From: Escherichia coli | GTDB lineage: Bacteria; Pseudomonadota; Gammaproteobacteria; Enterobacterales; Enterobacteriaceae | Direction: 5' to 3' (one strand) | DNA length: 64,000 nt | Assembly: GCF_003334255.1 (NCBI RefSeq) | Contig: NZ_QOWU01000002.1 | Shown: positions 26,624-29,032 of the stretch, one piece after another | How positions within the stretch are numbered: the stretch's first letter is position 1 | How the letters are laid out: each line of letters starts with the position of its first letter | Notes under the pieces: generated by a model | Database searches by the model: none | Seen by the model: the letters and a program-made list of their open reading frames with translations, nothing else | Told to the model about the DNA's origin: nothing | Translations under genes and position numbers: made by a program

Positions 26624-26823
26624 GCACGACTGCCGGATGCGGCGTGAACGCCTTATCCGGCCTACACTTCGCCCGTAAGCCGTAGGCCTGATAAGACGCG
26701 CAAAGCGTCGCATCAGGCATGGCGCACGACTGCCGGATGCGGCGTGAACGCCTTATCCGGTCTACACTTCGCCCATAAACCGTAGGCCTGATAAGACGCG
26801 CATAGCGTCGCATCAGGCATCTG
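26624..26823. repeat. tandem REP/BIME array, 2 units with exact 100-bp period
   Basis: gcacgactgccggatgcggcgtgaacgccttatccgg... recurs at 26624 and 26724, with a third partial start at 26824. Confidence 0.8.
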
Positions 26824-26841
26824 CGCACGACTTATCTATGT

Positions 26842-27381
26842 TTACCACATCAAATCATCAGGCACTTTGAAGTCGGCATACGGGTCGTCTTCATCCTGCT
26901 CTTCGGCGCTGAGCGCGCTGTGCAACACTATACTGCTGGCATCGCGCTGAGCAATTTTATCGGCAACGCTGGCGGGAATAATGGCGTATTCACCTTCGCT
27001 ATTGTTATCGACCAACAAGCGGGCAATCGCCAGACGACCATTAATCAACTGCGCCTGTGTGAGCTTATCGACAAAAATCTTCTTAATCAGATTGCCGTCA
27101 GTGAAGTTAAAACCAATATCGCCATTGGCAATGGTGATTCGGTTCATTTCAATAAGCTGCTTCACCTGAGCTTTATATTCTTTCGCCAACGCCGCTTGTT
27201 TTTGCTGTTCGCTAAGCTGTTTATCACGCTCAAGCTGTGCCTTTTTATTTTCTTCTACCGCCGCCCGAGCTTCACGCGCCTGAACGCGCGATTTTTTCGC
27301 CGTTCTCTCCACCTTCGCCGCTTTTTTGCTGGTGACTAATCCTGCTTTGAGCAACTGCTCTTGTAAGGTAAGTTTTGCCAT
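26842..27381 (-). CDS. yaiL: DUF2058 family protein YaiL
   Basis: ORF trimmed to MAKLTLQEQLLKAGLVTSKKAAKVERTAKK..., 179 aa, Lys/Ala/Glu-rich N-terminal half. Confidence 0.8.
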   Translation of the reverse strand: MAKLTLQEQLLKAGLVTSKKAAKVERTAKKSRVQAREARAAVEENKKAQLERDKQLSEQQKQAALAKEYKAQVKQLIEMNRITIANGDIGFNFTDGNLIKKIFVDKLTQAQLINGRLAIARLLVDNNSEGEYAIIPASVADKIAQRDASSIVLHSALSAEEQDEDDPYADFKVPDDLMW

Positions 27382-27482
27382 CTTTGTTTCCAAACCCGCT
27401 GAATAATTTTTAGCGAGTATACCTGTAAACGCCGTAGGTGTATTGGGGTGAAGTCCCTTTCGCCCCTGCCTAATAAGGCACG

Positions 27483-28694
27483 TCAGGCATCGGCGCACGG
27501 CTGTATTCGTGATCTCCGGCTCATCAAAATAAACACCGCCAACCCAGCAACAAGAATACCCGGTGCAGAAGCGGCCATTACGCCGACCGTGCCAGTGCCT
27601 AATGCCAGCATTTTCCCGGCCAGTAACGGACCGCTCATAGCCCCCAGACGCCCTACCGCCACGCCTGTTCCCACACCTGTTGCGCGGATCTGCGAACTGT
27701 AAAACAACGGTGCCAGGGCATACAAAACGCTTTGCCCACCTGTCGCAAACAACCCCGCGACAAATCCCGCCAGCAACATACCGTTAAATGACGACACCGT
27801 TCCAAGCGCCAGCAGCGAAGCTAACATGCCGCTATAAATCAGTAGCGACATGGTTACTGGACGCAGCTTATCCATCAATGCGCCCAACATTAACGTCCCG
27901 CTTGCCGCCCCCATTTGCAGGGCAAACATCACCCCTGCCGCCTGCGATGGCTGGAATCCTTGCTCCACCAAAAGTAGCGGTAGCCAGTTGATCAACATGT
28001 AGACCACCAGCAGAGTGAAGAAATAACACAACCACAGCAGCAGCGTCGCGGTTGCCGTTTCTGGCGCAAATAAGGCACGCAGTGGTGGCGCAGACTGTTT
28101 TTCGCCAGCGAAAACCGCCGACTCCGGCAGCCAGCGCATTAATAGCGGCACCAGAATCAACGGCACCACACCACCTACCCAAAACACCGTTTGCCATGCT
28201 AAGTTTGCCCCCGCGAAACCCAGTGTCGCCGCCAGCGCCGCGCCAATGGGAACACCGCAATACATCAGGCTCACTGCCGTCCCACGAAAACGTGGACCCG
28301 CGGCTTCAGACGTCAGGGCGATAAGATTCGGCAACGCCGCCCCCAGCCCGACACCGGTCATCAGCCGCGCAAAGACCAGTGAGGGGAAATCCCAGGCAAT
28401 CGCCGTTGCCAGTGAGAACAAACCAAACAGCGCAACTGAGCCAATCAAAATGCGCTTGCGACCATAACGGTCCGCCAGCATTCCGCCAACCAACGCGCCG
28501 GGTAGCAAACCGAGTATTCCGGCGCTAAATATCCAGCCCATTTGCATTTTATCGAGTGCGAAAGCCTGGGCGATGCCACCCGCCGCAATGCCAGCCGCCT
28601 GAAGATCCAGCCCTTCCATCAGAGCGACCAAAAAACAAAGCCCGATGGTCAGCATCAGGCGGGATGAAGATGATGAAGGGGTACGAGTCGACAT
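27483..28694 (-). CDS. mhpT: 3-(3-hydroxyphenyl)propionate transporter (MFS)
   Basis: ORF trimmed to MSTRTPSSSSSRLMLTIGLCFLVAL..., 403 aa, 12-TM MFS topology. Confidence 0.85.
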   Translation of the reverse strand: MSTRTPSSSSSRLMLTIGLCFLVALMEGLDLQAAGIAAGGIAQAFALDKMQMGWIFSAGILGLLPGALVGGMLADRYGRKRILIGSVALFGLFSLATAIAWDFPSLVFARLMTGVGLGAALPNLIALTSEAAGPRFRGTAVSLMYCGVPIGAALAATLGFAGANLAWQTVFWVGGVVPLILVPLLMRWLPESAVFAGEKQSAPPLRALFAPETATATLLLWLCYFFTLLVVYMLINWLPLLLVEQGFQPSQAAGVMFALQMGAASGTLMLGALMDKLRPVTMSLLIYSGMLASLLALGTVSSFNGMLLAGFVAGLFATGGQSVLYALAPLFYSSQIRATGVGTGVAVGRLGAMSGPLLAGKMLALGTGTVGVMAASAPGILVAGLAVFILMSRRSRIQPCADA

Positions 28695-28772
28695 AAGATG
28701 AACCTCGTTGCGAGTGCAGGTGAATCGCGACTGATACATTGCCAGCCGCGTAATCAGAACTATTTAATGACT

Positions 28773-29032
28773 GCCTACGGGCGAAATGTAGGCCGGACAA
28801 GACGTTTATCGCATCCGGCAGTCGTGTGCAGATGCCTGATGCGACGCTAACGCGTCTTATCAGGCCTACAAATTCCCGCGCCATCCGTAGGCCGGATAAG
28901 GCGTTCACGCCGCATCCGGCAGTCGTGCGCAGATGCCTGATGCGACGCTAACGCGTCTTATCAGACCTACAAATTCTCACGCCATCCGTAGGCCGGATAA
29001 GGCGTTCACGCCGCATCCGGCAGTCGTGCTGG
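28773..29032. repeat. tandem REP/BIME array, about 2 units
   Basis: Repeated gcatccggcagtcgtg..gcctgatgcgacgctaacgcgtcttatcag..cctacaaattc...gtaggccggataaggcgttcacgcc blocks. Confidence 0.8.

Follow-up and report, generated by a model that had tools for sequence, protein, structure and literature searches.

What do two REP arrays do when they face each other across a pair of Escherichia coli genes? Within the window, a 64,000-nt stretch of one E. coli contig (NZ_QOWU01000002.1), two such arrays enclose yaiL and mhpT. An earlier note on this DNA had suggested that they mark recombination boundaries and insulate transcription. Here we describe the arrays, follow them through complete E. coli genomes and weigh the roles they may have at the DNA and RNA level.

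Architecture of the two arrays

Open reading frames (ORFs) and the RefSeq annotation of several genomes, one of them 100% identical, give the order frmB(+), array 1, yaiL(-), mhpT(-), array 2, mhpE(-). The arrays thus flank yaiL-mhpT between frmB and mhpE, as the earlier note had described. The genes concerned are:

25785-26618, plus strand: frmB/fghA (S-formylglutathione hydrolase) CDS, stop codon at 26616-26618 (ORF list; RefSeq annotation of the 100%-identical genome)
26842-27381, minus strand: yaiL (DUF2058) CDS (ORF list; RefSeq annotation)
27483-28694, minus strand: mhpT (3-(3-hydroxyphenyl)propionate transporter) CDS (ORF list; RefSeq annotation)
29070-30083, minus strand: mhpE (4-hydroxy-2-oxovalerate aldolase) CDS (ORF list; RefSeq annotation)

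Tandem Repeats Finder (TRF) delimited array 1 at 26624-26832 (period 100, 2.1 copies, 94% matches, 0% indels, score 376) and array 2 at 28788-29029 (period 101, 2.4 copies, 93% matches, score 414). Both agree to within ~15 nt with the extents proposed before, namely a two-unit array with an exact 100-bp period at 26624-26823 and a second array at 28773-29032. A repeat search of the window returned direct copies of 97 nt and 101 nt at 96% identity, and revealed the two arrays to be mutually inverted, with arms of 43-44 nt that are 98-100% complementary. Parsing into individual REPs yielded the following features:

26624-26832, no strand: array 1, BIME-2 in the gap between the convergent genes frmB and yaiL; two Y/Z2 units (4 REPs) that repeat exactly every 100 bp (TRF, REP parsing, Rfam naRNA4)
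26632-26665, plus strand: Y REP of array 1, matching the parsing pattern GCCGGATGCGGCGTGAACGCCTTATCCGGCCTAC without mismatch
26682-26718, minus strand: Z2 REP (inverted) of array 1; positions 26682-26692, read on the minus strand, form the IS621 target ATCAGGCCTAC (sequence; IS621 junctions in other genomes)
26732-26765, plus strand: Y REP of array 1, 1 mismatch
26782-26818, minus strand: Z2 REP (inverted) of array 1, the final hairpin for frmRAB-direction RNA (sequence)
28788-29029, no strand: array 2, BIME-2 of 5 REPs (Y-Z2-Y-Z2-Y) with a 101-bp period, between tandem mhpE (upstream) and mhpT (downstream) (TRF, REP parsing, Rfam naRNA4)
28788-28819, minus strand: degenerate Y REP of array 2, mhpT-proximal
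28834-28869, plus strand: Z2 REP of array 2; positions 28859-28869 match the IS621 target ATCAGGCCTAC exactly
28887-28920, minus strand: Y REP of array 2
28935-28970, plus strand: Z2 REP of array 2
28988-29021, minus strand: Y REP of array 2

BIME-2 elements are defined by y and z2 REPs in inverse orientation, with a copy number that varies between strains (PMC3333891). Both arrays consist of Y and Z2 REPs with 0-1 mismatches in alternating orientation, repeated in tandem with linkers of 13-17 nt; every unit of both carries GTAGG/CCTAC, and hairpins appear in the RNA folds. Both sites are extragenic, array 1 lying between convergent and array 2 between tandem genes. Compared with the BIME-2 of E. 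coli at large, they share the alternating inverse Y/Z2 order, GTAG/CTAC tails, short linkers, tandem copies, extragenic location and strain-variable copy number, and nothing essential differs: both arrays are ordinary, well-known E. coli REP/BIME-2 elements. The two differ from each other in their tail-to-tail linkers, ACTTCGCCCGTAAGCC in array 1 and of the GGATGGCGCGGGAATTT type in array 2. Their sequence also contains the GTAG and the stem mismatch required for binding by the REP-associated tyrosine transposase (TnpA-REP/RAYT), whose use of BIME-2 as substrates is an established biochemical property of these elements (PMC3333891).

The arrays themselves are far beyond chance. REP clusters lie at about eight further places in the window, and 355 REP elements are annotated in K-12 (PMC4550694), giving a mean spacing of ~13 kb. 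From this spacing, our own Poisson estimate puts the chance of a second REP element within 2.2 kb at ~15%, so that two arrays bracketing two genes are unremarkable.

Gene order and the search for inversions

Inverted repeats around a ~2-kb segment recall invertible segments such as the fim switch or those of Hin/Gin, and the earlier note's boundary proposal amounts to treating yaiL-mhpT as a module that is inverted, lost or exchanged through the arrays. The arrays are true inverted repeats, and arms of 43-44 nt exceed the minimum homology commonly quoted for RecA recombination. However, the likeness to invertible segments is confined to geometry: the arrays enclose no genes other than yaiL and mhpT, and we found no dedicated recombinase gene in or beside the segment.

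We queried 5,426 complete E. coli genomes with the synthetic junction expected of an inversion, in which the frmB 3' end runs directly into the mhpT 5' end in reverse complement. This inverted junction occurred in 0 of the 5,426, as against 5,293 genomes with the native one, leaving a single orientation throughout the set. With longer flanks and a 1.8-kb tolerance that admits IS insertions, frmAB-yaiL was collinear in 5,403/5,418 genomes (99.7%) and mhpT-mhpEF in 4,888/4,925 (99.2%), and the yaiL-mhpT spacing was constant at 720 bp. One genome that matched only the middle of the query, and so resembled an inversion, turned out to differ in copy number in both arrays.

The sole large indel of the interval falls elsewhere:

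27451-36370, no strand: mhp island (mhpT, array 2, mhpEFDCBA and mhpR), missing from ~500 of the 5,426 genomes; yaiL and array 1 lie outside it and are kept
27483-27502, no strand: short Z2-head/linker-like fragment, 18/20 identical to 26813-26832 and overlapping the mhpT stop codon (score reached by 1 of 2,000 shuffles)

This polymorphism breaks between yaiL and mhpT, away from the arrays, and is bounded by neither of them; the presence or absence of mhpT tracks that of the mhp genes. Hence, yaiL and mhpT do not form an evolutionary unit. Natural populations offered neither both orientations nor array-bounded indels, the marks of an invertible segment. The arrays do not promote inversion of the intervening DNA, and the proposed comparative check of the interval has left the recombination-boundary reading largely refuted; we regard it as extremely unlikely. 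The useful outcome is negative and quantitative, in that inverted BIME-2 arrays 2 kb apart are accompanied by zero fixed inversions in 5,426 genomes.

Two further events near the arrays were considered and set aside. The delta-lacX74 endpoint (MC1000) does not qualify as an array event, its junction falling in unique, REP-free sequence 30-50 bp beyond array 2, which also speaks against the arrays as recombination boundaries. The island breakpoint (27450/27451) lies 33 nt from the 20-nt REP/linker-like fragment, with the fragment inside the island; this proximity is the support for a REP-mediated origin of the island boundary, suggestive at most, and we did not adopt it.

Unit number and IS621 insertions

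The arrays vary between genomes in their number of whole units. Array 1 comprises 2 or 4 REPs across E. coli genomes (inserts of 124 or 223-225 bp) and array 2 comprises 1, 3, 5, 7 or 9 (inserts of 70-74, 169, 270, 371 or 472 bp), all in register; both arrays gain and lose whole 100/101-bp units in register. A single REP separates mhpE from mhpT in 31 of 58 sampled E. coli genomes, and since this is the majority, the multi-unit array is clearly dispensable. At least one REP was kept at both sites in all alleles inspected. K-12-type matches that stopped at the end of array 2 were dismissed as an artefact of joining repeated pieces, K-12 having two extra units.

Both arrays also receive insertions of IS621, an IS110-family element with a bridge-RNA recombinase. 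Its published natural target, the 11-nt ATCAGGCCTAC (PMC11208160), is present in Z2 REPs of both arrays, and IS621 was found in array 1 of 99 genomes and array 2 of 60 (159 in total). The element (1,279 bp) sat between TTATCAGGCCT and AC, with a CT core, in 5/5 insertions inspected. Its orientation relative to the REP was nearly fixed, at 99:0 in array 1 and 60:2 in array 2; one exception was inspected and proved to be an insertion in a Y REP. The Z2 (rarely Y) REPs of the arrays are thus natural IS621 landing sites of the published kind, with exact natural insertions in other genomes, whereas the window's own two arrays are free of IS621.

Transcript ends and the probable role of the arrays

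Taken together, we are highly confident that these are ordinary BIME-2 arrays with in-register units and IS621 sites, which do not invert the DNA between them and whose effects would be those of hairpins at the RNA level. The RNA folds of the arrays are far more stable than those of shuffled sequences (z = -6.0 and -8.1), and a terminator scan detected no intrinsic (Rho-independent) terminator, that is, a GC-rich hairpin followed by a U tract, inside either array. The best reading is that REP hairpins help to define mRNA 3' ends and act as partial attenuators of transcription, a role already known. When transcribed, they would form very stable 3' UTR structures, and these would be expected to block 3'-to-5' exonucleases in addition to attenuating transcription in part.

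Published K-12 Term-seq data bear on array 1. K-12 and window coordinates sum to 404153, a relation inferred from two table sequences, which places one RNA 3' end as follows:

26828, plus strand: window equivalent of the MG1655 Term-seq 3' end 377325(-), LB OD 2.0 (PMC7815308, supplementary file 1)

For RNA running in the frmB direction, this end comes 10 nt after the final Z2 REP of array 1 (PMC7815308). RNA in the yaiL direction crosses array 1, with 3' ends at 377694/377696(+), ~165 nt beyond the array, and a Rho-termination region lies farther on. Because yaiL-direction RNA reads through, insulation by array 1 is at best partial; an effect of REP arrays on transcription, as supposed in the earlier note, is a reasonable idea. 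For frmRAB mRNA, array 1 would fix the position of the 3' end and protect it; on the end of yaiL mRNA it would act in the same way but with lower efficiency. The frmB stop codon precedes the first Y REP by 13 nt. In 2015, Liang, Rudd and Deutscher reportedly found lower translation where a REP lies within ~15 nt of the stop codon. A 2026 preprint reports that, for convergent gene pairs, a REP in between is correlated with higher expression, and that REPs do not uniformly lengthen mRNA half-lives (bioRxiv 10.64898/2026.03.23.713779).

The prominent RNA 3' end at the edge of array 1 also bears on whether the arrays are selfish or neutral repeats that persist only through slippage and the activity of the REP-associated transposase and are of no consequence for neighbouring genes. 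The wide and seemingly unconstrained drift in copy number among strains, from 1 to 9 REPs, and the IS insertions tolerated in 159 genomes would suit such neutrality, yet this 3' end and the retention of at least one REP at both sites argue against it, and we consider it rather unlikely.

For array 2, mhpT and mhpE have no Term-seq entries (PMC7815308), the mhp genes not being expressed in the published conditions; a consensus scan, which bears on the earlier note's placing of mhpT outside the mhpABCDFE transcription unit, revealed no promoter-like site between array 2 and mhpT, and our literature search found no published link between mhpT and REPs. A close comparison is REP325, the yjdM-yjdN BIME-2 from which the naRNA4 RNA family (RF02564) derives and which acts as a partly Rho-dependent attenuator and as a stabiliser of upstream mRNA (bioRxiv 10.64898/2026.03.23.713779). 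As array 2 lies between tandem genes like REP325, it is expected to combine the functions of terminator and stabiliser in the same way: by analogy with what was shown experimentally for REP325, array 2 may cut read-through from mhpE into mhpT and shield the mhpE end. The Y-l-Z2 unit is likewise shared (63-80 bits). REP325 differs in having 12 hairpins, compared with 4 and 5 REPs here (1-9 across strains), and array 1 differs from it in lying between convergent genes.

This kinship raises the possibility that the arrays are genes for naRNA4-like nucleoid-associated sRNAs that bind HU and condense the chromosome. Three sites in the arrays exceed the RF02564 gathering score of 59.5 bits, at 26685-26762 (-) with 79.6 bits and at 28890-28967 (+) and 28791-28866 (+) with 79.3 and 62.8 bits, and RNA of the REP325 unit is said to bind HU (PMC4550694). 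However, the Rfam model represents the Y-l-Z2 unit of REP325 (PMC4550694), and because it merely describes that unit any BIME-2 matches it, as do five loci within the window. Moreover, RNA reading into array 2 from mhpE would be antisense to the better match, and its strand scores 59.3 and 49 bits, neither of which reaches the gathering score. A 2026 study whose authors include Adhya, an author of the original report, describes no measurable nucleoid compaction by REP325/naRNA4 and an absence of REP-REP contacts (bioRxiv 10.64898/2026.03.23.713779). We therefore took the Rfam match as a description of the repeat unit rather than as evidence for an sRNA gene, and judge an sRNA function to be very improbable.

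Gyrase binding, a general property of BIME-2, may by analogy extend to these two arrays. That they act mainly at the DNA level, as strong gyrase sites setting supercoiling around the frmB/yaiL junction and the end of the mhp operon, seems unlikely to us. Gyrase cleavage sites are over-represented in a subset of BIME-2, mostly at Y REPs and independently of transcription (PMC6379681), but cleavage is limited to such a subset, we found no mhpT, mhpE, yaiL or frmB entry in the supplementary tables searched from that study, and common alleles carry just 1-2 REPs.

With hairpin effects on mRNA 3' ends as the preferred reading, the arrays hold little discovery value as such, since everything of note about REP/BIME-2 elements here is published: the elements themselves, the variation in their copy number, the influence they have on mRNA 3' ends and the use that IS621 makes of them as targets. 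A more speculative idea, to which we give little credence, is that the mhpE-mhpT alleles of 1, 3, 5, 7 and 9 REPs, with their near-identical flanks, constitute an evolvable rheostat: with every unit added, less transcription would continue into mhpT and the mhpE end would become more stable. If true, strains would inherit different ratios of transporter to catabolic enzymes with no change in promoter or coding sequence. At this locus, natural alleles already span 1-9 REPs between neighbouring genes of the same pathway, and they could serve to measure the dose-response of REP-mediated attenuation.

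Two inverted BIME-2 arrays of variable length

The earlier note had described two REP arrays around yaiL-mhpT, an observation borne out by Tandem Repeats Finder, by parsing against REP patterns and by the Rfam model naRNA4. The layout is as follows; strain G6/7 is 100% identical to the window over the tested 4.3 kb.

Gene order: frmR-frmA-frmB (+), yaiL (-), mhpT (-), mhpE-mhpF and onward (-)
26624-26832: array 1, between frmB and yaiL; period 100, 2.1 copies, no indels (Tandem Repeats Finder); REP order Y(+) Z2(-) Y(+) Z2(-) (parsing against REP patterns)
28788-29029: array 2, between mhpT and mhpE; period 101, 2.4 copies (Tandem Repeats Finder); REP order Y(-) Z2(+) Y(-) Z2(+) Y(-), the mhpT-proximal Y being degenerate (parsing against REP patterns)

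In BIME-2 elements, Y and Z2 REPs of opposite orientation are separated by short linkers and repeated in tandem, the number of copies differing from strain to strain (PMC3333891); all defining features tested were present in both arrays. The two arrays are mutually inverted, with arms of 43-44 nt showing 98-100% complementarity. The naRNA4 model represents a single Y-l-Z2 unit from REP325 (PMC4550694), and arrays 1 and 2 plus three further REP loci in the window score above its gathering score, a match that describes the repeat unit and is no evidence for a small-RNA gene. The arrays are real, far beyond chance. Since REP loci recur across the 64-kb window, with further clusters at ~8 places, two arrays 2 kb apart are not unusual.

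Between the stop codon of frmB and the first Y REP lie only 13 nt (window 26619-26631); REPs within ~15 nt of a stop codon reportedly lower translation via ribosome stalling, as described by Liang, Rudd and Deutscher in 2015.

Copy number was assessed in 58 sampled genomes. The frmB-yaiL spacer measured either 124 bp, equivalent to one Y/Z2 pair (33/58), or 223-225 bp, equivalent to two (25/58), while the mhpT-mhpE insert fell into five size classes.

Size classes of the mhpT-mhpE insert (insert length; REP content; genomes)
70-74 bp; 1 REP (single Y); 31/58
169 bp; 3 REPs; 6/58
270 bp; 5 REPs (the window); 2/58
371 bp; 7 REPs; 4/58
472 bp; 9 REPs (K-12); 15/58

Removing two internal units from the K-12 array 2 yields that of the window, and the flanks match at 100% across the 600 nt compared; slippage in register, or unequal exchange between direct repeats, would account for such a difference. 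In some records with a K-12-type array 2 (H127 and H130), the RefSeq annotation places a 'hypothetical protein' within the nine REPs, probably a spurious ORF of REP sequence.

Collinearity across the arrays and the mhp island

Junction queries consisting of unique flanks, with the REPs removed, were searched against all 5,426 complete E. coli genomes. The junction expected of an inversion (frmB 3' end plus reverse complement of the mhpT 5' end) occurred in none of the 5,426. The native frmB-yaiL junction was intact in 5,293 of 5,418 genomes and the mhpT-mhpE junction in 4,830 of 4,923; yaiL and mhpT were joined in 4,921, their span being a constant 720 bp in all 27 full-length matches listed. 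Longer-flank queries, which tolerate insertions up to ~1.8 kb, found collinearity in 5,403/5,418 genomes on the frmB-yaiL side and 4,888/4,925 on the mhpT-mhpE side, and all five non-joined cases inspected were IS621 insertions. Tests for features of an invertible or exchangeable module, namely both orientations in nature and a recombinase, were negative. With no inversion junction and near-complete collinearity, the proposal that the arrays mark recombination boundaries is not supported.

One match that first looked like an inversion (H36) differs in copy number in both arrays; another (H180) is the laboratory deletion described below.

Approximately 490 genomes match only the yaiL half of the yaiL-mhpT query, and about 500 of the 5,426 lack the mhp cluster. 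In the latter (e.g. MS8345), ~62 bp (locus L003, 7668-7731) replace window 27451-36370. Because the absent stretch spans mhpT, array 2, mhpEFDCBA and mhpR, array 2 and mhpT are parts of the mhp island, with yaiL and array 1 lying in the conserved backbone. The supposed two-gene segment yaiL-mhpT is hence not a unit, as the island edge separates the two genes. The replacement includes or continues a GlxA-family regulator pseudogene fragment adjoining lacI, which suggests that the mhp-less state did not arise by simple deletion from the mhp+ state.

The delta-lacX74 deletion of MC1000 (NZ_CM170063, locus L010, 4260-4290, equivalent to window ~28740) stops 30-50 bp short of array 2, fusing the mhpT upstream region, in unique sequence, to a truncated YlbE-family gene that we take to be yahG. 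The junction inspected in MC1000 contained no REP and only loose microhomology.

A 20-nt fragment at window 27483-27502, overlapping the mhpT stop codon and encoding the last mhpT residues, matches the Z2-head and linker in array 1 at 18 of 20 positions, and its score is reached by only 1 of 2000 shuffles. It may be a relic of a third BIME.

Transcript ends at the arrays

The array RNAs are predicted to form structures much more stable than those of shuffled controls, at -108 kcal/mol (array 1, frmB-direction strand; z = -6.0) and -163 kcal/mol (array 2, mhpE-to-mhpT strand; z = -8.1). A terminator scan detected no hairpin-plus-U-tract in either array, nor did a scan between array 2 and mhpT detect a promoter-like site.

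Term-seq of MG1655 reports a 3' end at 377325(-) (sheet LB 2.0; PMC7815308, supplementary file 1). The sequence given beside it is that of the final Z2 REP in array 1, and the end maps to window 26828, 10 nt beyond the hairpin, based on the table format (10 nt shown downstream) and two anchor sequences. With 100,650 reads, it is comparable to other primary 3' ends that the sheet lists for the minus strand. RNA running the other way has 3' ends at 377694/377696(+), with a Rho-termination region called at 378012(+) (PMC7815308); these ends fall ~165 nt past array 1, antisense in frmB. Given an end at the array in one direction and ends beyond it in the other, array 1 marks the frmRAB 3' end but lets yaiL-direction transcription through. 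Of the roles envisaged in the earlier note, an effect on transcription is plausible and documented in part, in contrast to that of recombination boundaries.

REP325 is a BIME-2 array that lies between tandem genes. In experiments it attenuated the downstream gene in a partly Rho-dependent manner and stabilised the upstream mRNA, with no measurable nucleoid compaction (bioRxiv 10.64898/2026.03.23.713779). By analogy, array 2 would reduce read-through from mhpE to mhpT and would protect the mhpE mRNA end. That the mhpE-mhpT allelic series of one to nine REPs tunes transporter expression between strains seems unlikely. Some BIME-2 elements are enriched in gyrase cleavage sites (PMC6379681); a search for such data on the present locus found none. 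BIME-2 elements, their variation in copy number, their influence on mRNA 3' ends and their role as IS621 targets have all been described in the literature.

IS621 targeting and further REP clusters

In every case aligned, IS621 (1,279 bp) lay within a Z2 REP, inserted between ...TTATCAGGCCT and AC..., a site that equals the published natural target, ATCAGGCCTAC with a CT core (PMC11208160). Insertions were present in array 1 of 99 genomes and array 2 of 60, their orientation tracking that of the REPs; the opposite orientation was seen in 0 and 2 genomes, respectively. Strain PT62 (locus L009, NZ_CP090448, 425-1978) carries an oppositely oriented IS621 in array 2, inside a Y REP, at the one-mismatch target variant ATCCGGCCTAC (insertion between TTATCCGGCCT and AC, variant at position 4). 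A second pigeon isolate, LP5-1, whose genome has the same length, matched at the same coordinates; of these two, inspection covered PT62.

In strain M114 (H284, NZ_CM151394), array 1 contains an annotated transposase of the family of IS1397, another IS specific to BIMEs. Beside IS621, array 1 of locus L005 (NZ_CP049967) contains a 35-nt AT-rich linker (GTGAATTCTGCAATATATTGAATCTGCATGCTTTT) between Z2 and Y REPs, which we take to resemble the IHF-binding L motif of BIME-1; if this likeness holds, the allele would be a chimeric BIME.

Further REP clusters in the window are as follows.

42035-42743: degenerate Y and Z1 downstream of lacY/lacA
46189-46467: two identical Z1+Y REP pairs exactly 200 bp apart, a BIME-containing 200-bp direct duplication
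49182-49311: Z2-Y-Z2 BIME-2, naRNA4 71.6 bits
54032-54253: three same-orientation Z2-like REPs spaced 93 bp apart, no canonical Y being detected between them at the threshold used
63744-63957: alternating Z1-Y-Z1-Y-Z1 with short spacers, naRNA4 78 and 72 bits, which looks like an 'atypical BIME' of tandem Z1 and Y
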